DNA of 64,000 nucleotides. Origin: a virus. The stretch lies in the IMG/VR virus record IMGVR_UViG_3300010160_000035, positions 15,639 to 79,638 of that record, one strand, 5' to 3'. The position numbers were made by a program, and so were the translations under genes. Every line of letters begins with the position of its first letter. Position 1 is the first letter of the stretch. A model generated the notes under the pieces. It saw only the letters and a program-made list of their open reading frames with translations. It searched no databases and was not told the DNA's origin. This document shows positions 15,336 to 64,000 of this stretch, piece by piece.

Positions 15336-15710
15336 TTAAAAGTCTAATGTTATTTGTCGTGGTGGTGGTGGCATTTGATTACCATTTTTTAGATGTGCAA
15401 TATTCCACGTGCCTGGATGGTCAGAATTAGATAGTATATCTATTTCTTTCTGCAAATGCTGTTGTTTTTGCATTCTGTTAAACAACATAGCCTTCTTTTT
15501 GTGTTGGTAATATTTATCCATCACAATCATTGGCATGTTATTCTGATACTTTACAGTATATTCTAATGAAAAGTATTTTCTACCTTTCCAATTAGAGTAA
15601 ACTAATACACCATCATGCATACCTTCTGGTAAAGAAGTTGCATATGTCATTCTTACTTGTACACTATCATTAAAATAGAATACTTTACAGTTTTTTGGTA
15701 ATGTTACCAT
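15336..15710 (-). CDS. Hypothetical early protein
   Basis: 124 aa ORF. Confidence 0.55.
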   Translation of the reverse strand: MVTLPKNCKVFYFNDSVQVRMTYATSLPEGMHDGVLVYSNWKGRKYFSLEYTVKYQNNMPMIVMDKYYQHKKKAMLFNRMQKQQHLQKEIDILSNSDHPGTWNIAHLKNGNQMPPPPRQITLDF

Positions 15711-47489: not shown

Positions 47490-48251
47490 ATGATAACATT
47501 AAACCAAATGATTTATCAAGTCTATGAAGGACTTCAGATTACATCTGATGATACTTCATTAGATAAAAGATTAATTAGAGATTTAATTAATCAATCAAGA
47601 GCTAATTGGATTAGAAAAGAACACAACAAGAACAGAAGTATTGATGATAATATCATCCAAGATTTAGGTTGTATAGACATTGAACTTACAGATAGAGTAT
47701 CAGCTAATTGCTGTGATATATCTACAGAATGTAGGATTCTCAGATCTAAAGAAAGAATACCTAATGCTATTGAGTTAAACCATGAAAAGATAATCACTAG
47801 AATATCAGCAGTAGACTTTATGTCTATTCCTATTATATTTATGGATTATGATGCTGCTATTTACTTTGGTAATGGTAGATACAATAAGAAAGCTTTAGCT
47901 GCTTTCATTAAGAACAACTACTTATATATTATATATAACAAAGGTGCATTCAATATGCTAATTGAGAAACTAAATGCTCAAGGTGTATTTGAAGACCCTA
48001 CAGAAGCTGCATCATTTACTAATGATTGTGGTACACCATGCTTTACTTGGGATTCTCGTTATCCTATTAATGCTTGGATGTGGCAGACTTTAGTTAAACC
48101 AGAAGTACTTAATGAATTAAGAAGCAAGAGAACTCTATACAGAGATGATAACAACAATGCTAAGGATGATGCTATTCCATCAGTAGCAGCTAATTTTACA
48201 CAAGCTGGTACAGATCCTGGACAAGGTAGACAGAAACAACAAGAAGAATGA
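47490..48251 (+). CDS. Tail ring (tubular) protein
   Basis: SDD..LD.RLI, QDLGC, GVFEDP, YPI; crAss-like synteny. Confidence 0.65.
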   Translation: MITLNQMIYQVYEGLQITSDDTSLDKRLIRDLINQSRANWIRKEHNKNRSIDDNIIQDLGCIDIELTDRVSANCCDISTECRILRSKERIPNAIELNHEKIITRISAVDFMSIPIIFMDYDAAIYFGNGRYNKKALAAFIKNNYLYIIYNKGAFNMLIEKLNAQGVFEDPTEAASFTNDCGTPCFTWDSRYPINAWMWQTLVKPEVLNELRSKRTLYRDDNNNAKDDAIPSVAANFTQAGTDPGQGRQKQQEE

Positions 48252-48772
48252 CAAGAAAAGATTCTAAGAACAAGTTTGATGTGCATAATACTTATGAAGA
48301 TATTTATAAGCATTATAAAGTAAATACAGATAAGCCAGTAGACAAAGCTAACCATGCTGCAGTACTGGCTGACACATTTGAAACTCTAATGAACATGGTA
48401 ATCAAAGATGGTTACTCATTAAAGTTTCCACACAAGTTTGGAACATTAGAAATACAAAAGAAAAAACAAAAGATAGTCTACAATGAAAATGGTTCTATAA
48501 ATAGAATCTGCTATAAGATTGATTGGGGTGAGACTAAGAAACATTGGCAAACAGTTTATGGTGATATCTCTGCTGAAGATTTAAAACAGATTAAGAATAA
48601 ACCTAAAATCTATTGCAAGAATAAATATAGAATGAAATTTAAATATATTAAAGACAAGGCTGTATATAAAGGTAAGTCAGTAGTTATGTTTATACCAAGT
48701 AGAAAATGGTGTAGAGAATTAGCTACTCATCTTAAAACAGATCCTTATAGAACAGATTATAAAGAACAATGA
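48248..48772 (+). CDS. IHF/HU-like basic protein of the crAss tail module
   Basis: FPHKFGTLEI..IDWGETKK..FIPSRKWCREL. Confidence 0.6.
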   Translation: MTRKDSKNKFDVHNTYEDIYKHYKVNTDKPVDKANHAAVLADTFETLMNMVIKDGYSLKFPHKFGTLEIQKKKQKIVYNENGSINRICYKIDWGETKKHWQTVYGDISAEDLKQIKNKPKIYCKNKYRMKFKYIKDKAVYKGKSVVMFIPSRKWCRELATHLKTDPYRTDYKEQ

Positions 48773-49070: not shown

Positions 49071-50036
49071 ATGGCTACTTCAGGTAAACTTGTCAGTTTA
49101 AAAACTATTGTAGAGAGAGTCTACATGGACTTTGGATTTAATTATTCATTATCATTCACAGAAGCTGCTGAATGGGCTGGTAGTTTACTTGCTTTACTTA
49201 AAGCTCCTTTGATATTAAAACATCATGTTGAAGAGATTATAATTGATGAAGGTAGAGGTAAGCTCCCTTGTGATTTAGAATCTATTATACAAACAGCTAG
49301 AAAAGTACAGGGTGTTGGTGATGGTTGTTCTACAGGTGTAATTGCTACTTTAGATAGAGGTACACAGTATGTAGAAATCTCTGCTATTGATATTGTAAAT
49401 AGAAAATTTAAATTATGTGGTTGTAATGCATTCACTACTTGTGATGAATGTACTACTATTGAAGGTCCTAATATTGAAGGTAATATTCCTTGTGAACCTC
49501 GTACTCCTATTATTAGAAGATATGGTGGTGGCACTGAAAGACCTAACTTTAGATTAGAGCCTATGAGATGGGCTACTGATTCTTTTAACAATAGCATGCA
49601 TTGTACTAACTATGACTATGCTTGTAAATCTGCAAGTACATATACAGTCAATGGTAATTATATATTTACATCTTTTGATCAAGGTTCTGTAATGATGGCT
49701 TACTTAGCTATACCTACAGATGAAGAAGGCTTTCCTTTAATACCTGCTGATGAATGGTGGAGACAAGCAGTACAGTTTGAGATTGCTTATAAGATTGCAA
49801 TGAAACTATTTATTCAAGGTAATATTGCAGATAAAACATTTCAGTATATTGAGAGAGAAAGAGATTGGAAAGTAGCACAAGCTGTTAATAAATCTAAAAT
49901 GCCTTCTATTGATGAAATGGAATCATTCAAGAATCAGTGGCTTAAACTTATTCCAAATTACAACAATCATAGTACATTCTTTAAAAACATGCAAATGCCA
50001 GAAAGAATGTTTAATCATCCATACAGATACTTCTAA
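49071..50036 (+). CDS. Tail ring (tubular) protein with a Cys-rich insertion
   Basis: LPCDL, YIFTSF..G, YLAIPTDEEGFPLIP, MPSIDEMES. Confidence 0.7.
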   Translation: MATSGKLVSLKTIVERVYMDFGFNYSLSFTEAAEWAGSLLALLKAPLILKHHVEEIIIDEGRGKLPCDLESIIQTARKVQGVGDGCSTGVIATLDRGTQYVEISAIDIVNRKFKLCGCNAFTTCDECTTIEGPNIEGNIPCEPRTPIIRRYGGGTERPNFRLEPMRWATDSFNNSMHCTNYDYACKSASTYTVNGNYIFTSFDQGSVMMAYLAIPTDEEGFPLIPADEWWRQAVQFEIAYKIAMKLFIQGNIADKTFQYIERERDWKVAQAVNKSKMPSIDEMESFKNQWLKLIPNYNNHSTFFKNMQMPERMFNHPYRYF

Positions 50037-50039
50037 TAT

Positions 50040-53000
50040 ATGCCAGCTAGTAAAAATACATGGAATAAGGGGCTTAATTCAGATTTTTCAAAACTTAAAA
50101 GCCAACAAGACAGTTACTTAGATGCTAAGAATATCAGAGTAATGACAGATGAGGGTTCATCTACTTTTGCTATAGAGAATATTAAAGGAAATGAATTTAG
50201 TTTTAATATACCACCTGTTGAAGCTACATATACTATTACAATACCTGAAGGATTTTTAGGTACAATGTATGTTGATTTACAAAGAGGTGTTTACTTAGAG
50301 AGTCTCCAAATTGATAACATAGAAAATAAATCATATGAGTTTATTACTGAAGAACTAAATGCTAAATTACAAACAACTAATTTTCCTGGTAAAGAATACA
50401 CAAGATTTTATTTTAATTCAAAAGGCATTGTACTATATGATTTTTTACCAAATTCTTCAACATTATCTAGTATTGTTTTAACTGTATATAATGCATTATC
50501 TGATTTAAGAACTGGTAGAACAGCTACACATACTATACTTGGATGGGGATATTATAATAATACAATTGTATTAATTACTTGCCCTTCAAATAGTAATAGT
50601 GAAACTCCTGAAGATGAAGAAGGTTTTATATGGGCAGCTACTTATGATAATGCAACAAATACTATACAAGTTGCTGACATTGATGGTGATTATTTAAACC
50701 CTAATACTACATTAAGATATGCAGGTAAACTAAATTTATCAAGACAATATGCTATCTACAAACATTTAAAATGTAGATATGAAAATAACTATATTGCAAG
50801 AGTAGTATGGACAGATGGTTATAATAATTTAAGAACTTGCAATGTTCTTGATCCACAAATATGGGCAACACCACCAGAATTATTCTCTTATATACCTGTA
50901 CATGCACCACAGAAACCTGTTATTACTCCAATAACTGGAGGTACATTACCAACAGGTAAATATCAATACTTTTACCAACTATCTTCTAATCAAGGAGCTA
51001 CATCTACATTCTCTCCTATAAGTAACTTAATATTTGCTTATCCTGGTGACTCAATTAATTATGCTACACCAGGCAATAACCCAGGAACAAATTCTCAAAA
51101 ATCAATGCAGGTTTATATACAAAACCTAGATACTAATTATGATACTATTAGATGTGGTTATATAGTATATCAAATTACTGATGTACCAGAAGCTTTTTTC
51201 TTTGATGAAAGAGCTATACCTGATACTGGTAATTTAACTATAGTGCATAGTGGTAATGAAAATGATATACCTATTGATTCAGTAAATATTGCTAATCTTA
51301 ATAGAACTCCAGAAGTATTTAAAACTATTGATGTAGTTAGAAATAGATTATTTGCAGCTAATGCTAAAACTACTAATTTTGATTTAACAAATGAGTTTGA
51401 TGCTAGAGCTTATAGATTTGATTCTACAGGTATAGCTAGATTATATAATATAGATGATACTTATTTTAACCCATCTTTATTAATAGACATTAGTTTAAAT
51501 CAAATGTTTATTGAAAATCCTATTCCTATATCTCCAATAGACTATACATTAATACCTGATACATTTGATTGCATTAATCCTTTTAATCAAGAAAATAATG
51601 CTTATAATCCATTTTCAAATAATGATTGGTATAATACTGCACAATATAAATATCAAGATGCTAATGCAACTATAATTGGTGGTAAAGGATTAAACATTTC
51701 TTACCAGTTTGTAACTAAAGAGATGACAGCTAAAATAGCTAGGTTTGATACTGCTAGTAAATATATACAACCTGATTTTAATTATGCAAATGAATATACA
51801 TATGAATTTTCTGATACATATGCATATCCAGGTGGTAGAGGTTTAACAATGGACAGTTTGAAAAATCCAATAATTGAAACATTATTTACAGGGTATTCAA
51901 GAGGTGAGGTTTACAGATTTGGTATTGTATTTTATGATAACTATGGTTATCCATCTTATCCACTATGGATAGGTGATATTAAGTTTCCATTTGCTTATGA
52001 GCAAGATGATATAGGAGATAGCTTTGGTCTTACTAAATTAAATGATGCTGGTGTACCATATACTCAAAAAACATTTGTAGGTATACCTGACTATACACAA
52101 GTTGATGATATCGATGAAGAAAGTTCTTTTGATATGTTACAGGTTGGATTTTATCTTGCAACAAAACTAGTAGGGCCTAATGGATTTGTACATACATTAG
52201 CTGATTTTACTCTTGGAGTAGGTGAAGGTAATCCTGAAAATTATCAATCAGATTTTAATAATTTACCATATAGTCAAAGATATGGATTATATGTTATGTT
52301 AGATCCTTTATTTCCTCAAGCTATATCATTTATTACTGATGATAATGGACCATACTCTGGATTTCTTCCATCTGTCTGGGCAGGAAAATCTATACAAATA
52401 ACTAAACAACTTTTAGGTGCTGAATATGTATCTATACTATTTACTTTCCCTACTTTTTTTCCAAGTGGGAGTGGTAGTTCTAACCCTGTAATAGTTAAAC
52501 AATTAGGTATTACATTTTCTTTAGATACATCAGGTGCTCAGTTTCAAGCTATTAAAAATAAAATATCAGGATACTCTTATGTAAGATTAAAAAGAGAACA
52601 AGCTGATAGTACTAGATTAGGTACTGGAGTACTTCAATCTTCATATGCTAGTGGAGATGATAAAAATAGATATATACTAACGTCATATGAATGGGATACA
52701 GCGCAAAGTGGTCCTAAATGGGGATTTGATTTAGGTCCTGGTAATGAAAATGGTGAGCAAGTTAGATTAGGATTACAAACATATTACACTCCTAGTATAG
52801 TAGGAAATTCTTTACCTGTATTTTCTAATGGAGATTATCTTAGATTTATAGGTAGAACTAATGATTATGGCTATGTTGTACAATACTCTGCAGAAATAAC
52901 AACTCCTGATTTTGGTACAAATTATGCATATTATGTAGCATCAAATGATTTTACATATAGTTATGATGATAGTACTTACACTCATTGGATGTTAAATGTG

Positions 53001-54827
53001 CAACAAGCACAATCAACTAATTCTTTTTTACCTACTAATAATAAATTTCTAATTAAATCAAGAGCATCTGTTCCTTATTCAACTAGTGGAAATGATGCTA
53101 CTATAGATAGTTTAGTTTTTAGAAATATGGCTAATGCTAATATTGATGATGCTCAAGCTGGTAATTTTTCTGAATGGGGTGCACAATGCTTAGCAATTAC
53201 ATTTGATGCTGCTATTAGTAACTTTCCAGATACTACTGCTATCTTTAGACCTACTAATGTTAAATTGCCTATATATTTAGTTGCTTATGAAAGATATTTA
53301 CCAGAACAATATAGAGGGTGGACTAGAGCAGATAGATATAATAATGAATACATACTTACAAATCACTTTCAACCAATAGTTGGTGCTGGTAATTTATTTA
53401 GTGATGTATATGGTGGAGATACATGGGTTAATTATTTTGATTGGCAAAAGACTAATATAAATTTTACAGATAGTGTTGGAGGTAGTGGTTATGGAACTGG
53501 TGGAGAACCAGGTAGAGGTGTAGCAATATTCTTTCCTGCTGAATCTACATTTAATACAGATTTAAATGTTTCAGCACAACGTGCTGCTGTAAGACAAAAT
53601 ACAGATTCTATATTTCAAAGTAATTATCAATTTAATGCTGCTTATTCACAACAGAATACAACTAATGTATTTGTATCAAAAGGTTATCTACAATCTAATG
53701 TTATAGATGAACCACACACTATATACCCATCAGAACCTAAATTAGATGGAGAAGGTAATGACTCTTGGAGAACACTATTAGTTAATAATGCATTATCAGT
53801 TAACGGTAACTACGGTGAAATCAATAGAGTAATACAATTTAAAGATAGATTATTTTATTATCAAAATGATGGTGTAGGTATAGCATCAGTTGATGAGAGA
53901 GTACTTGCTAATGAAGGTGATACTACACAAACTCAGTTAGGTACAGGTTCAGTATTACAAAGATTTGATTATATATCTACAGAAACAGGATGTAAACATT
54001 CTTTTGCTGTAGAGTCTACAGGCTCATCTCTTTATCATTATGATTCTTTTATTAATAAATTATTTAAATACAGTGTAGGTAAAACTAAAGATGAAATATC
54101 AGGTATGAATCCTTTAACGGATATTAAAGGATTATCTGGATTCTTTAGAACTGCATTTATTGGTAGTAGTATTAAATCAGAAGATAAAATATTAAGAACA
54201 GGAGATAGAGTAGGTATTGTATCTTCATTTAATTCAGAGTACAATACTGTGTATTTTACATTCTTTGACCAACCTAATCTTATAAAATATACTATATCTT
54301 ATAATGAGTTATTAGATTCTTTTGAATCATTCTATGATTTCTTTCCATCTATGTATCTTAATATGAGAAAAAGATTTTTATCTTTATCTACAGAAAGTTC
54401 ATTTTCTAAAGTGTATACACATAATGTAGGCACTAGAAATATTTTCTATGGTGCAGTTTATCCGTCAACAGTTACATTTAGAGTTAATGAAAACTCTGAC
54501 TTTGTTAAAACATTTGATAACTTTCAACTTAATACAGAAGTTATATTAAATAACTTGCAATTAGCAGAAACAGTTTCTTCATTAGCAATTACTAATGACT
54601 ATCAAATTTTTACAGACAAAAATGTTAACTTTGTACAAAAGATAAGAAGCTGGAGATTAGCTATTCCAAGAGATGAAACTAATCTTGCATTGACTATTAA
54701 ACCTAGAATATCGGATAAATATATAGATGTTAAATTTACACATAATCCATTAGGTCTTGATAAGACATTTAGATTGCATGATGTAATAACAGAATATTCA
54801 ATGAGAAGTAAAATTGTACCTAAATAA
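50040..54827 (+). CDS. Tail stabilisation/muzzle protein (P22 gp10-like)
   Basis: 1595 aa; NTWNKGLNSD..YLDAKNIR, YSRGEVYRFGIVF, GGDT, DSWR, YGEI, TISYNE..FESFYDF. Confidence 0.8.
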   Translation: MPASKNTWNKGLNSDFSKLKSQQDSYLDAKNIRVMTDEGSSTFAIENIKGNEFSFNIPPVEATYTITIPEGFLGTMYVDLQRGVYLESLQIDNIENKSYEFITEELNAKLQTTNFPGKEYTRFYFNSKGIVLYDFLPNSSTLSSIVLTVYNALSDLRTGRTATHTILGWGYYNNTIVLITCPSNSNSETPEDEEGFIWAATYDNATNTIQVADIDGDYLNPNTTLRYAGKLNLSRQYAIYKHLKCRYENNYIARVVWTDGYNNLRTCNVLDPQIWATPPELFSYIPVHAPQKPVITPITGGTLPTGKYQYFYQLSSNQGATSTFSPISNLIFAYPGDSINYATPGNNPGTNSQKSMQVYIQNLDTNYDTIRCGYIVYQITDVPEAFFFDERAIPDTGNLTIVHSGNENDIPIDSVNIANLNRTPEVFKTIDVVRNRLFAANAKTTNFDLTNEFDARAYRFDSTGIARLYNIDDTYFNPSLLIDISLNQMFIENPIPISPIDYTLIPDTFDCINPFNQENNAYNPFSNNDWYNTAQYKYQDANATIIGGKGLNISYQFVTKEMTAKIARFDTASKYIQPDFNYANEYTYEFSDTYAYPGGRGLTMDSLKNPIIETLFTGYSRGEVYRFGIVFYDNYGYPSYPLWIGDIKFPFAYEQDDIGDSFGLTKLNDAGVPYTQKTFVGIPDYTQVDDIDEESSFDMLQVGFYLATKLVGPNGFVHTLADFTLGVGEGNPENYQSDFNNLPYSQRYGLYVMLDPLFPQAISFITDDNGPYSGFLPSVWAGKSIQITKQLLGAEYVSILFTFPTFFPSGSGSSNPVIVKQLGITFSLDTSGAQFQAIKNKISGYSYVRLKREQADSTRLGTGVLQSSYASGDDKNRYILTSYEWDTAQSGPKWGFDLGPGNENGEQVRLGLQTYYTPSIVGNSLPVFSNGDYLRFIGRTNDYGYVVQYSAEITTPDFGTNYAYYVASNDFTYSYDDSTYTHWMLNVQQAQSTNSFLPTNNKFLIKSRASVPYSTSGNDATIDSLVFRNMANANIDDAQAGNFSEWGAQCLAITFDAAISNFPDTTAIFRPTNVKLPIYLVAYERYLPEQYRGWTRADRYNNEYILTNHFQPIVGAGNLFSDVYGGDTWVNYFDWQKTNINFTDSVGGSGYGTGGEPGRGVAIFFPAESTFNTDLNVSAQRAAVRQNTDSIFQSNYQFNAAYSQQNTTNVFVSKGYLQSNVIDEPHTIYPSEPKLDGEGNDSWRTLLVNNALSVNGNYGEINRVIQFKDRLFYYQNDGVGIASVDERVLANEGDTTQTQLGTGSVLQRFDYISTETGCKHSFAVESTGSSLYHYDSFINKLFKYSVGKTKDEISGMNPLTDIKGLSGFFRTAFIGSSIKSEDKILRTGDRVGIVSSFNSEYNTVYFTFFDQPNLIKYTISYNELLDSFESFYDFFPSMYLNMRKRFLSLSTESSFSKVYTHNVGTRNIFYGAVYPSTVTFRVNENSDFVKTFDNFQLNTEVILNNLQLAETVSSLAITNDYQIFTDKNVNFVQKIRSWRLAIPRDETNLALTIKPRISDKYIDVKFTHNPLGLDKTFRLHDVITEYSMRSKIVPK

Positions 54828-54829
54828 AT

Positions 54830-57800
54830 ATGGCAGAGAAAAATTCACTTTGGAAAAATATCAGAGAAAAAGCTAAGCAAAACAGAGCATCTGGTGCTAC
54901 ACCTAAGAAGCCTACTACAGAAATGCTTAGGCAAGAAAGAAAAATTAGAGCACAGAAAGCTGATGGTGGACCAGTAAAAGAAAACCCTTTATATAAATCT
55001 AATGAAGATTATGTGTATAATCAATGGGTACAATCTATGCCTGAAAACCTTAGACAAGAATCTACAGGTTATAATATGAGAGGTGCTTGGGAAGGTGGTC
55101 TAGAACCTGAAATGTTTTACAGAGATGAGCAAGGAAACTTTAGAACTGCTCATGAACCACATCCATTTAATCCTACATATGAACCACATTTAGGAAGTAG
55201 AAATCCTAACACTGGAGAAATATTAAAATCACCAGAACACCATACTTATGATATGGGTATTGAAGGTGATATTAGAGCAGGCTATACTCCAAGAGTAGAT
55301 GCTAAAACAGGTAAGATGTATTCAACTAATTCTAGTGATCCTACAACAGCAGGACCATTTAAAGGTTATGCAGTAGGAGGTCCAACAAAAAAAGATGGTT
55401 ATTTAAGTACTCCTGTAGAACAAGTAAGCACAGGTTCATTATATAATCCAATTAGCAATAGAATTCATTCAGACCCTAATGATCCTGCAGAAGCTTTACC
55501 TCATGAATATTACCATGCTTGGCAACATGAACAAGGATTAGATAGAATACCAGAATTATATGATGGTCCATTAAGACAACCACAAACTCCTTGGTTAGAT
55601 GAATTAACTGCTGATTATTATAATAGAAGGTCAGCTGAAGAAAATCAAATTAATAATGAATTTAGAGGTCAAAACCCTAGTTTTAATTTTGTACCTAATG
55701 ATGTAATGTATGATAAATATACAAATGATGAAATGTATAATAGACCATACACTATGGAAGGTGAAGCTAGAGCAACAGAATCTCCTGAAGGTAGAGCATG
55801 GTTAAAAAATAATGGTATACTACCTCAAGGTGTTGAGAATATGTATAAAGCTAAAGGTGGGCCTGTAGGTGAAGATGAACTTTCTTTTTTAGAAAGACCA
55901 TTAAGTATGCCTATGGAAGGTTATGAGTGGGAGAGTAGACCAGAAAATCATGTAAAAGAACCTGTAAAAAAAACTAACTATAGTAACCCAAAATCAAAAG
56001 AGCAAGGTAAATCTAGTAAAGATTGGAAAGATGATTTATATTTAACTGAACAACAATTACAAAATCAAACTCTTAGAAAAAAAGGTACTCCATATAACTT
56101 ACCTAAAACTTCAGATCAATTACAAGCTGTAGGTGAACATTTTTTTGATCCTAAAAGAGTTAACTCTGTAGGTGAAAATCTACTTGAAATTATTGACCCT
56201 ACAGGAATATCATCTTGGGATGATGCATCTACTTCTTATAACTCTAAAAACCCAACTAGTTTTGAATCTATAGCAAACTACGGTTCTGTTATTCCTGTAT
56301 TAGGTAAAATACCACAGGCAGCTAAATCAATACTTCGTGGATGGAATGCTATTAATGGAGCTTGGGATATTAATAAAGATAATTTTGCTGAAGGAGGTTA
56401 TTATCCTACACAAGGTCCACCAAAAGCATTATTTAAAGGTTATGCTGAAGGTGGTTATATGTACCCAGGTGGTGGATATACTTTACCTAGTGGATTAGAT
56501 CCTACTAAACCTACTAGACAAGATAGTTTAATGTTATTTAATAATGCTTTAGAAAAGATTAAATTTTATAAAGGTAATCCTGATTATCAACGACTTGCTG
56601 TAGATAAAAATCTTAGGGACCCTAATAATACTATACCGCATACTAATTTTAAAGATCCTATTCAAAGAAAAAAACTTATTAAAGAAGGAAATTCACAACC
56701 AAATAAAAAAGTAACTCAAAAACATATAGACGAGGCTATTAAAAATGCCTTATCAGTTAAGCCTGTAACACCTTTAGAAGCTTCAAAATTAAAAGCACAA
56801 CTTAATAAAAATAGATTTGGTAAAATACCTAATACTAATTTAACTTCTTTTGGAGATGTTTTATTTAGTGGTTCTGATGATATTTATAATCCACTTGCTC
56901 CTCCTATATATTTACATCCTAATATAACACCTCAAGGTTCTGAAAGTTATGAGTCTTATAGATGGGGAGACAGTACAGATATACCATATTATGACCCAAT
57001 AGCTGTTGCTCCTTTTGATAAACTAACTACAGAACAAAAAGAAAAAAGAGTTGAAAAATATGGTGACGTAGGAGTACCTCAATCATACATGAATACTAGA
57101 AAAAAGAATACAACAAATACATTAACTAGTACTACTACATTAAAGAAAGCTGGTAACTCTACTACAATTATACCAAATACTCAACCAAAGCCTATACAGA
57201 TAGATAGATTAGAACCACTTAGACTTACAAATCTACAAACACAAGAAACACCATTAAAATTAAATTTATCTAATACAGAATACAAAGAACCATTTAAACC
57301 ATCAAGAGTGGTATTAAGAGAAATGGGTAATATACGTAGGTATAATAATAATGAGCCTTATAAAGCTACTCATGAAGTATATGTAGATGATGGTAATCAA
57401 TGGAGACCTGTTTCTAATGCAGAGCGTGAAAAATATATACAACAATATCCTGGCTCAGACCAACCTTTAGGATGGACAGGTAAAAAAGAACATGCTACTG
57501 GTGGTTACTTAAACCAATACCAACAGTATTCAACTGGTAGTTTTGTAGGTGAAGATGATAAATTACCTAAATTACCTTCTAATAGTTATGTAAATAAAGA
57601 AGGTGTTATAAATGGTCCAGTACTAACAGAACAGGGTTGGCAAGTACCAAAAACAAAAGACAATACTCCTATTGTTAATTTAAGAGAAGTTGAAATTATA
57701 TCTACACCAACTGGTGAATCAAGATTTAATAGTACACCTAATCCTTATTCTCCTGTAACAGGAATAGAGTTTTTAAATAGTGGGTTTAATCCAATTAATT

Positions 57801-60800
57801 GGTTTTTACCAAATACTGAAAAACAAGTACAGCCAATAGATCCTAAAACAGGAATGCCTTTTCCAGCAAGTGGTAAAGCAGATTATGACTATGGTACTGA
57901 AATGGCTTTAGCAGCACCATTAGCACAAGGAGTAAAATCTATAAGTAAAGGTGTTAATAAAGCGTATAATACAGTAGCAACTGGTAATTCAGCATTACCT
58001 ATTGCTTGGAAAAGTCCAGCAGTTGGACTTAGCCAAGAAATTAGTGATGATATGTTTAAATCACTTATAAATAGTGGTAAACTTTCAGATGCTGAAAGAG
58101 CTGTTGTAATTGATTATCAATATAATAGCAGACCTTTTACTGGAAGATCTGGTACAGTTAATGTAGAAAAAAGAAATCAAATTAACGATATAATAAAAAA
58201 ATACACTATAAATGCTGATAATACAGCAATAGCAACAAGAAAATTTAACCCTAAAAATAATTCAATAGGGGCAACTATAGAAAATGGTACATTAAATTTT
58301 GGTGATAGACCTACTTCTTTTTCAGCAGGTGTTGGTAAATCAGGTTATGGTTCAGGTTCTGTAGATAGAATAGTTATACCTAATAGAAGTTTAAAAAACC
58401 TTAATAAACAATTTACAGCTAATTCTTATGATCCAATTTCAGAAGAAGCTCTTAAAGGATTAGAAATTGATCCTCAATTTATTAATCATAATTATAATAA
58501 TTCTGCTATTGGTACTTTAAGAGATGAAAGAGAACTTGTAGGAACAGGGTTAAATTTAAAACAAGTAGGTAAAGTTAAAAATGATATTGGTGGTTATGAT
58601 TGGATAGTACAACATAAAAAACAAGCTGAAGGAGGATACACTATGAAAAACAATCAATCTTGGAGAAACTATCTTCAATATGCACAAGGTGGTAAAACTA
58701 ATAATGATAAAAATACATTATTAAATTCAATTATTTCTAATAATCTCGGTAGTAATGTTACAGATGATAAAGGAGGTAGAGGTTATGACTATTGGATTAA
58801 TAAATTACAAAATGAAGACAACTTAACTTTAGAAGAAGCACAACATGTTTTTGGTGCTCTTGAAAATCCTATGGCTAACAGAAATCCATTATATAACTCA
58901 ATACCATTTAGAGAAGAAGATTATGATTCACCTCCTGATGCTAGTCAGTTTGATTTATACACAGGCAATCAAGATAGAGCTAATATTAGAAGATATAGAC
59001 CTGACCAAAATCTTCAACCTAAAAAACCTTTTGGTTATGGTGAACCTGAATATGCACAAGGTGGATATACTAATCCATATAATCAATATCAAGATGATCC
59101 TCATTATCAATACAAAGTAGGTGGTAAAACTTGGCAAGGTGTAGGTTCAACTGCTTGGAATGTTCTTTCAGGTACATTAAATACTGTTACTGGTGGTCTT
59201 ACAACAGGTATAATGGATATGGGAGAAGAAGGTTTACAAAAAATGGCTAATCCTAATTTTGATCCTAATAATCCTGAAGATGTAAAAGCAATGCGTCAAA
59301 TAGAAACAGCTGGTGGTGCTGGTGAAATTGCTGGTAGTTGGTTAGGATTAACTCTAAATCCTGCAAATGTAGGTAGTGCTGTTGCAGGAACTGGAAAAGG
59401 TGCTAATGATATAGTACAAGCATCTACAGCTTCTGATGATGCTAAACAATGGTCACAGGGAATATCTGGAGTTATGCAATTAGGGCATCAAATGAATGGT
59501 ATGAATTCAGCTAGTTCTACAGGCAGTACACCAGGCGGTAGTGCTCCAGGAGCAGGTGCGGGAGCAGGAGAAGGTGTTTCTAAATTTGGAGATATATTGA
59601 CTAACTTTTCAGGCTCTGATTTTGGTAAAGATGCTAAAAAAGCAATGCCTTATATTAACCAAGCAGCAGGTATGGCTAGTGGTAATAAAGGTTCATTATT
59701 AGAACAAGGAGTTGCTAGACAAGATTATTTAAATTCACCAGAATATTTAGCTTTAAAAAACCAAGGTGATATAACAGTTAATAATGGAATCACTTTTTCA
59801 CAAGGTGGAAACATAACAAATAATTCATTAAATTTGCGTAATACTATGAGATACAAAAGATTTGCCCAAGGTGGTACATTTGACCAATATGGAATAAATA
59901 TGATTCCAGATTCTGCAGGACTACACCATGAAAGTGCTTATGGTGGTGTACCTATTGGACCTAATGCTTTAGCTGAAGGTGGTGAGATTAAAATGGATAC
60001 TGGGGATGGTGGTCAATATATAGTATCAGACCAAGTTGATGGTGCTGAGTCTCAAAAAGATTTTACTTTTTCTAAAGGTGGTAAGTATAAAGAACTTAAT
60101 AGAACTTTAGCTGATGGTATGAAACAAGATTTGACTAAATATACCTTTGGCTCATTGGCTACTAGTGATAGAGTTAAAGGTGATTTAAGAAGACCTAATG
60201 ATTCTTACTCTCAAAGTACTATAGAACAAATCAAACAAAAGTGGCAAGAGAAAACAGAATATGCCAGACAACGTAGTCAGCAAGAGCAGGCTATTGCACA
60301 AGCAGAAGAGCAAAAAAGAATGGCAGAAGAACAGTACATAGCTGCTTATGGTGGTAGAATTAATCCTAAGAAATACCCAGGATTAAACTATGCTAAAGGT
60401 GGTATACATATTAAACCTGAAAACAGAGGTAAGTTTACTGCATCAGCAGAAGCTGCTGGACATACTGTTCAAGAACATGCTAGTGCTGTATTAAATAATC
60501 CTAATGCAACTCCTCTTCAAAAGAAGAGAGCTAACTTTGCAAGAAATGCTGCTAAATGGCATCATGCTGATGGTGGTTATGTTCATAATCAAATGACACA
60601 ACCTATGCTAGCAACAGGTGGTCCATTATATGGAGACCCTGCATCACCATATACTTATGCAATGGGTGGTATGTATGGTGACCCATATGCTAGAGGTGGT
60701 CAAATAGATTACACTAATGATATGTATAGTTCATATGCAGGTGGTGGTCCAATGGTTAGTAATGTGCCACAAGCATTTAATGGACCTTCTGCACAAAATA

Positions 60801-62998
60801 GAGGTGGTATGTATATTTATGCTGATGGTGGTATGATGCCACCAGAACAGCAAATGATGCAACAGCAACAAATGCAACAACAAGCACCACAAGAACAGAT
60901 GCAACAACAGAGTGGTGGTCAAGACCAAATGATGCAAATGGTTCAGCAAGTTGAACAAATGTTACAGCAGGGTGCAGAACCTCAACAAGTAATGCAACAA
61001 CTTGTACAGTCTGGAGTACCACAAGAACAAGCACAACAAGTTGTTCAAATGGCTATGCAAGATTTACAAAGTCAAATGCAACAACAACCTCAAGAACAAC
61101 CTATGCAACAAGGTGAGCAACCTATGCAAGGTCAAGAACAACAAATGCCTCCTCAACAAGGTATGGCTAGAGGTGGTAGATTACCTAAAGATATTTTAAG
61201 AGCAAGAGCAGAAGCTCATATGTCTCCAGAAAAAGCAGCTAATTATGTAAATAATTATGCTATGGGTGGTAAAATGTATTATAAAGGTGGTCTTAATAAT
61301 AACAATGACCGTGAACATCGTAGGAAAATGAGAACAGACCCTGTATACAGAGAAGCATATAATCGTAAAATGGAAAGCTATAATGCTGCAATGGGTAATA
61401 AAAGCCAAGACTTTATAGATAAAGATGCAAAACTTCAAGAAGAAAGTAGAAGAAATTTTACATACCTTAGTCCATATACTGATCAAAATGAATTACGTGA
61501 TGCTACTGATTATTCAAAACAATTAACAGCTAATCCAGTAGGCCCAATTGCAGGTCCAGTTAATATGTATAATCAATACACAAATCCATACTCTTTATCA
61601 GACTTTCAAGAAGAAAAACTTGCTCAAAATGAAAGTTTAATGAATAGGTCTTTAAATGTAAATGCTAATCAACCTAAAGCACAACCAGAAACTGTACCTA
61701 CATTAAATAGAATAGAACAAAATTATTTTGATACTAGTAATTCATATAATCCTAATCCTTCATTACCTAATAATGAATTAGGGTCAATGCCTTCAACAGC
61801 TCCAACTTCTCCATTTAAACCAGAAGCAATGCCATATGATGATGAAATAGATTATACTGAAATACCAAACACTACACCTGTTAAATTAACAGGGTGGAAT
61901 ATGCCTAACTCCACTGCTAAAATTCCAGGTCCTATAAGTCCAAATACAATAGGCCCTAATGGTCCTATTACAGAAGAACAAGCTATTGCTCAAGGTTGGG
62001 AACCAGAACAACTAACAACTAAAACTCCACCACCTACTAAAAATGGTTTATCTACTTCAGATTGGATGGATTTAGGTACTGGAGCTTTATCATTAGCTGG
62101 ACCTATTTCACAATTCTTTCAAAAGAAACCAAAACCATTTCAGTATAAAAAAGCAAGTGCTACAACACTAGATCCTACAACAGCTATTGTACTTGCTAAC
62201 CAAGCTTCAAGAGAAGCCCAAGCTACATCTGATTATAACATTAAACAAAATGCTCCTACATCAGGAAGTTATTTAGCTAACATAAGAGGCAATGCTTTAC
62301 AATTTGGTAAACAACGTGGATTAGGTGCAGCTGGTATTAGAAGTCAATATGATTTACAAAATGCAGGCATCTTAAATCAATTTGGACAATACAATACTGA
62401 TATTGAAAACAGAAATATTGATGCTATACAACAAGACCAAGCTAACTTTCAAGAACAAAGAACTAATGCTCTTTATAATGCAGGTGCTAATGTAGCAGGT
62501 ATGCGTAAAGATTATAAAGCTAATAAGATTAATGAAATAATTGCTAAAAATATTGGTACTAATAATTGGCAGTATGATGAAGCTACACAAACTATTAAAT
62601 ATAAGACACCTAGTGGTCAAACAGTTAGTATGCCAGTACAAGCTGTTACTGCAAATAATACTCAAACTACAACAACTGCACCAGCAGTAACACAGCCTAC
62701 TCAAGCAAATACTCAACCTGCTGCATCTGCTAATCCACCTGCTACAACTGTTGATAATTTTACAATGCCAAATGAATTACAAAAAGGTAATGAAACTAAA
62801 GCATTTCAAGATTTCTTAGATGCTGGTGATATTCCTTGGTATAAAGGAAGTAAACTAGGACGTGGTAAAGGTTATGGTACATTTGGACCTAATACTAGAG
62901 CAGCATATGCTAAGTATAAAGATGCGTATGCTGAAAAACAAAAAGAAACTGCAAGGTTAATGTATAATATACAAAATCCTAATAATCCAATAAAATAA
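54830..62998 (+). CDS. Giant multi-module putative virion cargo (ejection) protein with repeated AxGG motifs
   Basis: 2722 aa directly after the muzzle gene; HExxH, ART-like, Gly-rich TM-like, Q-rich and PG-binding modules. Confidence 0.75.
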   Translation: MAEKNSLWKNIREKAKQNRASGATPKKPTTEMLRQERKIRAQKADGGPVKENPLYKSNEDYVYNQWVQSMPENLRQESTGYNMRGAWEGGLEPEMFYRDEQGNFRTAHEPHPFNPTYEPHLGSRNPNTGEILKSPEHHTYDMGIEGDIRAGYTPRVDAKTGKMYSTNSSDPTTAGPFKGYAVGGPTKKDGYLSTPVEQVSTGSLYNPISNRIHSDPNDPAEALPHEYYHAWQHEQGLDRIPELYDGPLRQPQTPWLDELTADYYNRRSAEENQINNEFRGQNPSFNFVPNDVMYDKYTNDEMYNRPYTMEGEARATESPEGRAWLKNNGILPQGVENMYKAKGGPVGEDELSFLERPLSMPMEGYEWESRPENHVKEPVKKTNYSNPKSKEQGKSSKDWKDDLYLTEQQLQNQTLRKKGTPYNLPKTSDQLQAVGEHFFDPKRVNSVGENLLEIIDPTGISSWDDASTSYNSKNPTSFESIANYGSVIPVLGKIPQAAKSILRGWNAINGAWDINKDNFAEGGYYPTQGPPKALFKGYAEGGYMYPGGGYTLPSGLDPTKPTRQDSLMLFNNALEKIKFYKGNPDYQRLAVDKNLRDPNNTIPHTNFKDPIQRKKLIKEGNSQPNKKVTQKHIDEAIKNALSVKPVTPLEASKLKAQLNKNRFGKIPNTNLTSFGDVLFSGSDDIYNPLAPPIYLHPNITPQGSESYESYRWGDSTDIPYYDPIAVAPFDKLTTEQKEKRVEKYGDVGVPQSYMNTRKKNTTNTLTSTTTLKKAGNSTTIIPNTQPKPIQIDRLEPLRLTNLQTQETPLKLNLSNTEYKEPFKPSRVVLREMGNIRRYNNNEPYKATHEVYVDDGNQWRPVSNAEREKYIQQYPGSDQPLGWTGKKEHATGGYLNQYQQYSTGSFVGEDDKLPKLPSNSYVNKEGVINGPVLTEQGWQVPKTKDNTPIVNLREVEIISTPTGESRFNSTPNPYSPVTGIEFLNSGFNPINWFLPNTEKQVQPIDPKTGMPFPASGKADYDYGTEMALAAPLAQGVKSISKGVNKAYNTVATGNSALPIAWKSPAVGLSQEISDDMFKSLINSGKLSDAERAVVIDYQYNSRPFTGRSGTVNVEKRNQINDIIKKYTINADNTAIATRKFNPKNNSIGATIENGTLNFGDRPTSFSAGVGKSGYGSGSVDRIVIPNRSLKNLNKQFTANSYDPISEEALKGLEIDPQFINHNYNNSAIGTLRDERELVGTGLNLKQVGKVKNDIGGYDWIVQHKKQAEGGYTMKNNQSWRNYLQYAQGGKTNNDKNTLLNSIISNNLGSNVTDDKGGRGYDYWINKLQNEDNLTLEEAQHVFGALENPMANRNPLYNSIPFREEDYDSPPDASQFDLYTGNQDRANIRRYRPDQNLQPKKPFGYGEPEYAQGGYTNPYNQYQDDPHYQYKVGGKTWQGVGSTAWNVLSGTLNTVTGGLTTGIMDMGEEGLQKMANPNFDPNNPEDVKAMRQIETAGGAGEIAGSWLGLTLNPANVGSAVAGTGKGANDIVQASTASDDAKQWSQGISGVMQLGHQMNGMNSASSTGSTPGGSAPGAGAGAGEGVSKFGDILTNFSGSDFGKDAKKAMPYINQAAGMASGNKGSLLEQGVARQDYLNSPEYLALKNQGDITVNNGITFSQGGNITNNSLNLRNTMRYKRFAQGGTFDQYGINMIPDSAGLHHESAYGGVPIGPNALAEGGEIKMDTGDGGQYIVSDQVDGAESQKDFTFSKGGKYKELNRTLADGMKQDLTKYTFGSLATSDRVKGDLRRPNDSYSQSTIEQIKQKWQEKTEYARQRSQQEQAIAQAEEQKRMAEEQYIAAYGGRINPKKYPGLNYAKGGIHIKPENRGKFTASAEAAGHTVQEHASAVLNNPNATPLQKKRANFARNAAKWHHADGGYVHNQMTQPMLATGGPLYGDPASPYTYAMGGMYGDPYARGGQIDYTNDMYSSYAGGGPMVSNVPQAFNGPSAQNRGGMYIYADGGMMPPEQQMMQQQQMQQQAPQEQMQQQSGGQDQMMQMVQQVEQMLQQGAEPQQVMQQLVQSGVPQEQAQQVVQMAMQDLQSQMQQQPQEQPMQQGEQPMQGQEQQMPPQQGMARGGRLPKDILRARAEAHMSPEKAANYVNNYAMGGKMYYKGGLNNNNDREHRRKMRTDPVYREAYNRKMESYNAAMGNKSQDFIDKDAKLQEESRRNFTYLSPYTDQNELRDATDYSKQLTANPVGPIAGPVNMYNQYTNPYSLSDFQEEKLAQNESLMNRSLNVNANQPKAQPETVPTLNRIEQNYFDTSNSYNPNPSLPNNELGSMPSTAPTSPFKPEAMPYDDEIDYTEIPNTTPVKLTGWNMPNSTAKIPGPISPNTIGPNGPITEEQAIAQGWEPEQLTTKTPPPTKNGLSTSDWMDLGTGALSLAGPISQFFQKKPKPFQYKKASATTLDPTTAIVLANQASREAQATSDYNIKQNAPTSGSYLANIRGNALQFGKQRGLGAAGIRSQYDLQNAGILNQFGQYNTDIENRNIDAIQQDQANFQEQRTNALYNAGANVAGMRKDYKANKINEIIAKNIGTNNWQYDEATQTIKYKTPSGQTVSMPVQAVTANNTQTTTTAPAVTQPTQANTQPAASANPPATTVDNFTMPNELQKGNETKAFQDFLDAGDIPWYKGSKLGRGKGYGTFGPNTRAAYAKYKDAYAEKQKETARLMYNIQNPNNPIK

Positions 62999-63001
62999 GA
63001 T

Positions 63002-64000
63002 ATGAATAGATTTTACAAACCAACACCAAGAGAATATGTATCTACACATGTAGATATGCCTTGGGAATTTTTACAAGGAGTTGCTGAACAAAAGCAAAAA
63101 GGTTATGACTCTGCTTTAGGGTTAGGTGATTCAGGTTCTAAGTTACTTGACTTCAATGCTATACCTGGAGACTATGAACAAAAGCAAGCTGTTCAAAATA
63201 AGTATAATGATAGATTTGCTGAAATCACAGACTATATTCAAAAGACTGGTGATTCTACAGGAGCATCAAGAGCATTTACTAATGTAATTAGAGATATCAC
63301 TAAAGATAGAAGTATTCAAATTATGAAAGCTGCTTATGAACCTTGGCAAAAAGATAGGGAAGCAGACTTAAATCTTGAAGGTAAAGCTACTCCATTTAGC
63401 AGACCTTTTAATTATATGCATAGTACCTTTGATGAAAAACTAGGTGACTTTAAACCATATTCACAAAGAAGAGGTTATGAAGGTATTGCAGTTGGTAAAC
63501 AGTTTAAGGAAGAATTTGAACAATCAATTGCTAATGTGCATGCTGATACACATGGTGAAAGAATTCATAAAAATGCAAATGGTGATTGGGTTGATAGATC
63601 TAATACAAGAGTAACTAAAGAAAGATTAAAACCTTTACTTGATGCATCCTTAAAAGAATTAATACCTAGATATTCACAATATGTAGGTGACTTTGTTAGT
63701 TGGGAAAAGAAACAAGGTAAGTCAGGATATGAATGGTTAAATAATATGACTGCTCAAATAGCTGGTGAAAGACTTGTTGATGATTCTACAATTAAATATA
63801 TTGAAAGTGAATTTAATACTGGTAGAAGACTTAAAGAGCTAGAAGGAGCATCTAATATGTTTGAAACAACAGGTATGGTATCTCCAAGAAATTTAAGTTA
63901 CAAACAACTACTTGAAGCTAAAAATACAGGAACAGCAGGTATAGCAGACTTAGAAAAAAGAATAGCATCTAGTGGTAATTCAGTTGAAAAAGCACAGCTA
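63002..64000 (+). CDS. Next putative cargo/ejection protein (truncated by the window)
   Basis: MNRFYKPTPREYVSTHVDMPWEFL; frame appears open to the window end. Confidence 0.7.
   Translation, partial: MNRFYKPTPREYVSTHVDMPWEFLQGVAEQKQKGYDSALGLGDSGSKLLDFNAIPGDYEQKQAVQNKYNDRFAEITDYIQKTGDSTGASRAFTNVIRDITKDRSIQIMKAAYEPWQKDREADLNLEGKATPFSRPFNYMHSTFDEKLGDFKPYSQRRGYEGIAVGKQFKEEFEQSIANVHADTHGERIHKNANGDWVDRSNTRVTKERLKPLLDASLKELIPRYSQYVGDFVSWEKKQGKSGYEWLNNMTAQIAGERLVDDSTIKYIESEFNTGRRLKELEGASNMFETTGMVSPRNLSYKQLLEAKNTGTAGIADLEKRIASSGNSVEKAQL

Follow-up and report, generated by a model that had tools for sequence, protein, structure and literature searches.

The DNA investigated here is a stretch of 64,000 nucleotides (the window), covering positions 15,639 to 79,638 of the IMG/VR virus record IMGVR_UViG_3300010160_000035. 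Near its end it harbors an open reading frame (ORF) for a protein of 2722 aa, through which a short motif, [Y/F/H]-A-x-G-G, recurs; its Gly-Gly (GG) copies at module joints are referred to as seams. An earlier reading of the letters by a model (the original prediction) had described this ORF as a crAss-like cargo gene and a shufflable cassette of effectors, packaged as one chain and cut after GG. Based on its CARG1 fold, BLASTP matches and synteny, we identify the protein as a giant homologue of the crassvirus cargo protein C1 (gp45 of phage crAss001). Its modules are exchanged between relatives and the motif lies at their joints, whereas cleavage after GG is unproven and somewhat disfavoured. 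The homologue set comprised about 70 large and 35 shorter proteins, and coverage counts were taken over 69 large homologues. The gene and its parts are as follows (window coordinates, strand, description; pLDDT, predicted local distance difference test).

54830..62998, + strand: giant cargo protein C1 homologue (P0001), 2722 aa, an ORF call with about 100 homologues and the muzzle gene directly upstream
54830..54970, + strand: conserved basic leader at the N-terminus, aa 1-47, closed by the first seam, K-A-D-G-G, then Pro
54971..59059, + strand: variable effector cassette, aa 48-1410 (about 1360 aa), any part of it covered by 2-23 of 69 homologues
55379..55858, + strand: candidate zincin-like module, aa 184-343, with HExxH at aa 225-229 and Y-A-V-G-G and K-A-K-G-G at its ends
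57932..58636, + strand: predicted C3-type (R-S-E) ADP-ribosyltransferase-like module, aa 1035-1269, from AlphaFold2 model mc2f7ac747ba1 and Foldseek
59060..59809, + strand: conserved Gly-rich region, aa 1411-1660, 18% Gly, covered by 50-56 of 69 homologues
59864..60367, + strand: CARG1 portal-binding domain, aa 1679-1846, with F-A-Q-G-G and A-A-Y-G-G at its ends, Z 11.5 to 7qog_M
60398..60577, + strand: conserved three-helix basic mini-domain, aa 1857-1916, between Y-A-K-G-G and H-A-D-G-G
60578..61309, + strand: disordered motif clusters, about aa 1911-2028 and 2091-2160, with ten GG copies and pLDDT <50
62015..62704, + strand: conserved C-terminal domain, aa 2396-2625, with no seam motif, covered by 37 of 69 homologues

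To identify the protein, its structure, its sequence and its gene neighborhood were considered together. AlphaFold2 models were obtained for aa 1398-2160, built on 44 homologues, and for aa 1020-1300 of the cassette. In the former, aa 1679-1822 (model residues 282-425) aligned to PDB entry 7QOG chain M, which is gp45 residues 425-552, with Z 11.5, a root-mean-square deviation of 2.3 A over 109 aa and 30% identity (next row: Z 6.2). This match needed an exhaustive VIA structure search; Foldseek with the 763-aa multi-domain model returned nothing at E <= 0.001. The confident CARG1 part of the model spans aa 1687-1847, and the four GG copies within it are hairpin turns. A BLASTP comparison of the C-terminal half with gp45 gave two matches, one for the CARG1 part (gp45 433-567, E 2e-5) and one for the mini-domain (gp45 368-433, E 4e-7), the latter in opposite order relative to CARG1. 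Homologues P0030 and P0027 match Pfam family PF25725 (crAss_CARG1), which had no match to the 2722-aa sequence itself at E <= 1. Pfam and PHROGs searches with the whole protein gave nothing useful, phmmer found no match among PDB sequences, and tblastn against 50,697 phage records returned only short module matches, in crAss-like phages.

The cargo ORF begins 3 nt past the stop of the muzzle gene, and it is preceded by the following genes.

47490-48251, + strand: tail ring protein 2 (Pfam CrAss_Ring_2, E 2.8e-37)
48248-48772, + strand: ORF without Pfam match, between the ring 2 and ring 1 genes
49071-50036, + strand: tail ring protein 1 (Pfam CrAss_Ring_1, E 3.2e-50)
50040..54827, + strand: muzzle protein gene (Pfam crAss_MUZ, E 1.8e-141, plus crAss_MUZ_C)

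Thus the order is ring 2, ring 1, muzzle and cargo ORF, with portal, terminase and major head protein genes farther upstream. The order is equal in crAss001, where muzzle gene gp44 is followed by gp45. By their muzzle proteins, the nearest described phages belong to the Suoliviridae and Steigviridae, at no more than 30% identity. The assignment to a crAss-like cargo gene in the original prediction was therefore correct, as the ORF adjoins the muzzle gene downstream and its CARG1 fold matches 7qog_M.

It was described that C1 of crAss001 is present in virions, where residues 425-552 are attached to the portal wing within the capsid and the tail barrel holds residues 214-245 in its interior, and that C1 is thought to be the first protein to leave the particle, N-terminus ahead (PMC10172136). 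By analogy, the 2722-aa protein would likewise be packaged and ejected. With crAss001 C1 (gp45; 7QOG chain M; PF25725) it shares the position after the muzzle gene, a basic leader ended by GG, a Gly-rich region, the mini-domain of 60 aa, the CARG1 portal-binding fold and GG seams of the same kind. The two differ in length (842 aa in crAss001, 2722 aa here) and in the cassette of enzyme-like modules, about 1360 aa long, that is inserted here between leader and Gly-rich region. Moreover, the order of mini-domain and CARG1 is reversed, and a Q/M-rich bundle and dense seam clusters are added.

To determine whether the recurrence of the motif exceeds expectation, its copies were counted in the ORF and in shuffles of the same protein with composition kept (n=2000). 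The ORF contains 38 GG dipeptides, of which 22 are part of A-x-G-G and 14 of [YFH]-A-x-G-G. In the shuffles, 1.67 +/- 1.29 copies of A-x-G-G (maximum 7) and 0.13 copies of [YFH]-A-x-G-G were obtained. Comparison with the other proteins of the window, a check that had been suggested along with the original prediction, gave the same picture, as the 46 other ORFs (15,433 aa) hold a single A-x-G-G and no [YFH]-A-x-G-G. The list of motif copies drawn up earlier was also borne out, including the variants YKVGG, FSQGG, FSKGG and YYKGG, with positions right to within about 3 nt. The last copy lies at aa 2160, leaving the final 560 residues motif-free. Among the large homologues, 69 of 70 carry 4-23 A-x-G-G copies each. 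In gp45 of crAss001 variant motifs are found, A-[FY]-G-G at 209, 332, 427 and 562 and F-A-E-G-G at 263. The aromatic-Ala-x-Gly-Gly motif is thus real and family-wide. No published description of it was found in the literature on crAss cargo with ADP-ribosyltransferase or on polyvalent proteins, and the crAss001 paper does not discuss it (PMC10172136).

Alignment of the relatives revealed a constant frame around variable content. The leader (aa 1-46) is common to about 59 of the 69 large homologues, and 58 of 70 family sequences, P0001 included, begin with MAEKNS. It ends in [YKH]-[AP]-x-G-G, mostly followed by Pro, and beyond this GG the sequences of relatives are wholly different. Within the cassette, seams with GG at 183, 343, 522, 541, 891, 1268 and 1287 and a degenerate Y-S-T-G-S at 905-909 were located. 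The core (aa 1400-2150) is conserved and is followed by a second variable stretch and then by the C-terminal domain. In the model of the core, the Gly-rich region, which is the counterpart of the Gly-rich N-terminal part of gp45, consists mostly of low-confidence helices and is predicted to be disordered. The mini-domain is confident at aa 1862-1909 (pLDDT about 90), as is a Q/M-rich three-helix bundle at aa 2029-2090 between the two motif clusters (pLDDT 94). A Kyte-Doolittle hydropathy scan gave no strong transmembrane helix (maximum 0.88). One shorter relative, P0083 (682 aa), joins the counterpart of a small module of P0001 (aa 790-975) straight to that of its C-terminal part (aa 2236-2721), demonstrating that the C-terminal domain can exist without the leader and the CARG1 core.

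We then asked where the relatives depart from each other. In the variable region, 27% of 125 alignment break-points fall within 8 aa of a motif copy, compared to 8.5 +/- 4.7% upon random placement (P = 0.0006); family-wide, 19.6% versus 7.6% lie within 5 aa. Break-points cluster at 183, 341-343, 538-546, 891-900, 1277-1291 and 1408-1411. A further border near 905-919 carries the degenerate Y-S-T-G-S, which resembles the Y-A-[EK]-G-S leader joints of P0006 and P0014. The borders at 790 and about 1040 are motif-free. With respect to the models, seams 1681, 1841, 1857 and 1915 border confidently predicted domains and Q-A-E-G-G 1268 directly follows the last strand of the ADP-ribosyltransferase-like module, whereas the GG copies at 1254, 1705, 1717, 1727 and 1750 are beta-hairpin turns inside predicted folded domains. 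Hence the claim that the motifs fall at module borders stands in part: break-points are enriched at the motif and flanking seams lie at domain edges, but two borders lack it and five copies lie within folds.

The modules themselves are gained, lost and permuted. In P0073 and P0074 the leader runs almost directly into the core and the cassette is absent, and in P0078 the zincin-like and His-rich modules are found in reverse order. Compared to gp45, mini-domain and CARG1 are swapped, each keeping its own flanking GG. These data support the notion of a shufflable cassette put forward in the original prediction: leader and core are constant in the relatives, the modules between them vary and meet at the motif, and we conclude that modules are exchanged between relatives with the motif at their joints. 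At the DNA level the motif-coding stretches form imperfect repeats of 14-27 nt with 75-93% identity; one exact run of about 16 nt, for example, is common to 58678 and 59050. Long DNA recombination repeats at the seams were rejected, since these repeats are no longer than the peptide and codon bias dictate.

To characterize the cassette content, individual modules were compared to known folds. The model of the ADP-ribosyltransferase (ART)-like module, obtained with seven homologues, has a core pLDDT of 70-92. In a Foldseek search of the PDB all eight matches at E <= 0.001 (best E 1.5e-4), and also the weaker ones listed after them, were ADP-ribosyltransferases of the C3, ExoS, iota Ia, CDTa, C3larvin or Tre1 type, at probability 1.0 and a target-normalised TM-score of about 0.5. 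In an alignment of eight sequences R118, S144 and E214-R-E216 (numbering of the 281-aa query) are invariant and in the right order, and the middle motif reads S-F-S-A-G. According to this model, aa 1035-1269 has a C3-type ART-like fold, with R, S and E-x-E as its putative catalytic residues. The module resembles T4 Alt, a packaged and injected ART, and the C3 exoenzymes in its C3-like fold, in the order of R, S and E-x-E and in its predicted delivery by the virion; whereas Alt is a protein of its own, equipped with a capsid-targeting peptide, the module is one domain of a 300-kDa chain. ART-like modules with about 50-55% identity also occur in P0089, P0093, P0094, P0097 and P0098, proteins of 1000-1400 aa from which the C1 leader is absent; P0097 combines the module with a YkuD L,D-transpeptidase domain, and in P0089 the 60-aa mini-domain follows it directly.

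The module at aa 184-343 is a candidate zincin, as judged from its conserved HExxH, which is kept in the homologous modules of P0015, P0030, P0061, P0078 and P0084. It has no Pfam match, and protein-atlas leads (SprT-like, LPD23, Zn_peptidase_2) were weak (0.86-0.88). HExxH occurs in 34 of 70 large relatives, where about 1 is expected by composition (homologues P0003-P0069). A chain often has two or three copies, and the sequences around them are of at least six unrelated kinds. Metallopeptidase-like modules thus seem to be the commonest payload of C1 homologues. Pfam domains detected in relatives were ADPrib_exo_Tox, ART-PolyVal (P0070) and DUF3597. The effector modules anticipated in the original prediction are therefore represented by at least one predicted C3-type ART fold with invariant R, S and E-x-E, in a family in which HExxH is common.

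A similar composition was reported for the polyvalent proteins of phages and conjugative elements, long chains encoded near virion genes that hold unrelated effector domains, among them ADP-ribosyltransferases and zincin-like peptidases, and whose metallopeptidase domains were proposed to process the chain (PMC5512222). By sequence and fold prediction the cargo ORF likewise has ART-like and HExxH modules in one chain next to virion genes. It differs in that the carrier is a crassvirus C1 scaffold and in that its joints carry one conserved peptide; the text on polyvalent proteins mentions neither crAss nor glycine nor linker (PMC5512222).

The mini-domain has the pattern I-H-I-K ... K-G-K-F-T ... 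K-K-R-A-N-F-A-R-N-A and belongs to no Pfam family. A search with aa 1650-1925 retrieved 2797 representative proteins at E <= 0.001, and most of the best 150 matches cover only aa 1857-1916, typically with 70-80% identity. In these proteins the mini-domain is often N-terminal in a chain of 200-500 aa, and some also carry Phage_lysozyme2 (tail lysozyme), SLT transglycosylase, Peptidase_M15_4 or CARG1. Free-standing mini-domain proteins start exactly at the residue that follows GG in the cargo ORF and end 2-4 residues before the downstream GG. Such a distribution may be what is expected for a tag of virion-borne, ejected proteins, and makes the mini-domain better suited than the seam motif to the role of packaging tag, which the original prediction had offered for the motif as an alternative to cleavage. 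The mini-domain, which also occurs fused to peptidoglycan hydrolases, may mark further virion-borne proteins.

Processing at Gly-Gly-X is known from adenovirus, African swine fever virus and poxvirus core precursors and from the LxGG sites of coronavirus PLpro, and the proteases in question are cysteine proteases of clans CE and CA. The seams resemble these sites in that a small or hydrophobic residue, any residue and Gly-Gly are repeated in packaged viral proteins; they differ by the aromatic residue before Ala, by the frequent Pro after GG and in that no such protease was found, and one cargo joint, in crAss001 gp45, is seen uncut in the virion. The solved virion chain of gp45 begins at A-F-G-G 425-428, and this joint is continuous and ordered (7QOG; PMC10172136). 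Of 759 distinct sites in the family, 21% have Pro directly after GG, as do 33 of 58 leader joints. Motif density is 7.5 per 1000 aa in relatives without HExxH versus 5.8 in those with it. In the motif clusters the seams are 7-30 aa apart, so that cleavage there would give only tiny peptides.

In the original prediction no Ulp1/adenain-like protease had been seen in the window. Among the Pfam matches listed (25 of 26 families) for the 50 other ORFs of the 79.6-kb contig, none is a protease of the adenain, Ulp1 or C39 type. Likewise, Pfam detected no GG-type peptidase family in the cargo ORF itself, and no C5, C48 or C39-type protease is annotated in the 85 kb of crAss001 that were covered. The contig starts inside an open frame and is hence incomplete, so the protease search is not final. 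This frame (2-2947 of the contig) carries a NADAR domain (E 5e-10), and the ORF after the cargo gene (63002-64000) runs off the contig end; a single giant gene of the RNA-polymerase-associated block was probably split at the ends of the assembly (79,638 bp). Single Pfam matches in other contig ORFs were CHU_C (type IX secretion signal), collagen repeats, PKD_4 and Cpn10, besides a weak match to Peptidase_M42 (E 1.4e-5).

Published matrix-assisted laser desorption/ionization (MALDI) peak lists of ten gel bands (1-10) of crAss001 virions were re-analysed (PMC6235969). By peptide mass, bands 3-9 correspond, in this order, to gp50 with gp47, gp49 with gp44, gp20 (portal), gp26 with gp22, gp22 with gp25, gp25, and gp23. 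For gp45 (90.8 kDa, 12 copies expected) few mass matches were obtained, which are also explained by dominant proteins; intact gp45 is thereby neither shown nor excluded. The missing signal could hint at processing, and suppression under dominant proteins explains it equally.

Three further readings of the motif were considered and set aside: signal peptidase I cleavage (Ala at -3, Gly at -1), which seems not to fit as there is no hydrophobic core before the sites; double-glycine leader cleavage of the C39 type, which likewise seems not to fit as the upstream leader pattern is absent; and a ubiquitin-like exposed C-terminal Gly-Gly, as the natural C-termini of mini-domain proteins stop before GG. 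Taken together, the proposal that the chain is cut after GG was not supported: the gp45 joint at 425-428 is intact, Pro often follows GG, five motif-like copies form hairpin turns within predicted folds, and the Pfam families listed for the contig include no GG-specific candidate.

Our preferred reading, to which we give even credence, is a polyvalent C1 cargo protein whose uncut seams combine three roles: hinge, docking or recognition peptide, and exchange junction. The protein would be held on the portal by its CARG1 domain inside the virion and, on ejection, would enter the host before the DNA. Its cassette of His-rich, zincin-like, C3-type ART-like and other modules would have been acquired between the basic leader and the Gly-rich/CARG1 core. 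The seam would be a conserved peptide in a flexible linker at both module ends, most likely uncut. As a hinge it might allow each module to fold, to unfold and to pass portal and tail channel on its own; as a short linear element it might be recognised by, or dock to, a partner in the virion, a role suggested by the dense motif clusters in disordered stretches adjoining the portal-binding domain; and as a standard in-frame junction it might permit the exchange of modules between phages.

Several points weigh against this reading. The aromatic-Ala-x-Gly-Gly motif is more specific than a plain hinge requires, and it is shaped like the hydrophobic-x-Gly-Gly sites of adenain, Ulp1 and PLpro-type proteases. 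No binding partner of the motif was identified. HExxH modules are far more frequent among the relatives than composition predicts (34 of 70, about 1 expected), and it is metallopeptidase domains that were proposed to process polyvalent proteins (PMC5512222). Twelve copies of the 154-kDa cassette exceed the tail cargo zone of crAss001, whose estimated capacity is 0.4 MDa; being too large for a tail barrel of that size, they imply that copy number or storage site must differ. Finally, a convincing gp45 signal was missing from the 85-100 kDa bands, in which the 12-copy portal was seen, which is a weak argument.

The strongest alternative, which we regard as a lesser but tenable possibility, is a true polyprotein whose seams are processed at Gly-Gly or just behind it, either within the capsid or once the protein has been ejected, so that the ADP-ribosyltransferase, peptidase and other modules are released as separate effectors. 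The protease could be a zincin-like module in the chain, an unrecognised phage protease or a host protease. In its favor the motif looks like known x-x-G-G protease sites and is kept strictly where unrelated modules end; nearly half of the large relatives (34 of 70) contain HExxH; the polyvalent-protein model predicts processing by metallopeptidase domains (PMC5512222); and in crAss001 cleavage would spare twelve chains from threading the portal channel (inferred from PMC10172136). That gp45 is undetectable at intact size in the 2018 gel peak lists adds weakly to this. It is opposed by the intact and ordered joint 425-428 in 7QOG, by Pro at P1' in 21% of sites and in more than half of the leader joints (33 of 58), by the higher motif density in relatives without HExxH, by seams so close that only tiny peptides would be released, and by the lack of a C5, C48 or C39-type protease among the matches listed for the other contig ORFs and in the crAss001 annotation.

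A more specific form of this idea, which we consider nearly as likely, is that the seam is the code for a dedicated, unrecognised protease, either an HExxH module acting in cis or in trans or an enzyme of the Bacteroidota host, which would make C1 a true polyprotein. If this were true, a phage-specific, freely exchangeable set of host-takeover enzymes such as the C3-like ART would be delivered as one chain and then released in the cell, which would be the first polyprotein strategy demonstrated in a tailed phage.

It is improbable, in our view, that the seam acts without any protein partner, as a flexible Gly-Gly hinge and recombination scar at which modules are exchanged by short in-frame DNA microhomology and whose persistence would simply reflect these exchanges. 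Modules are indeed exchanged and permuted at the seams, and the imperfect repeats of 14-27 nt, with the exact run of about 16 nt between 58678 and 59050, would suit such exchange. But these repeats are only as long as peptide and codon bias dictate, dense clusters lie in the conserved, unshuffled region aa 1917-2160, and aromatic residue and Ala persist among very distant phages, crAss001 included, which indicates selection on the peptide. A purely compositional origin of the count, in a protein that is rich in Gly, Ala and Tyr (9, 7.4 and 5.1%) and partly of low complexity, has a negligible chance and is refuted by the shuffles (1.7 +/- 1.3, maximum 7, against 22) and by about 100 relatives in which the motif recurs where unrelated modules end.

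No phages of the human gut are more abundant than the Crassvirales, and to our knowledge almost nothing is known of how they take over Bacteroidota cells. The protein expected to leave the particle first carries a variable enzyme payload in many uncultured relatives: toxin-like ADP-ribosyltransferases and predicted metallopeptidases, joined by one conserved peptide. For metagenomes this offers a rule by which injected effectors can be delimited and catalogued, namely by cutting the sequence at the seams. Since crAss001 is culturable and its gp45 has the same seams, the question whether seams are cut or dock can be tested there. The seam might also serve as a standard junction when cargo is to be engineered into crass-like phages.

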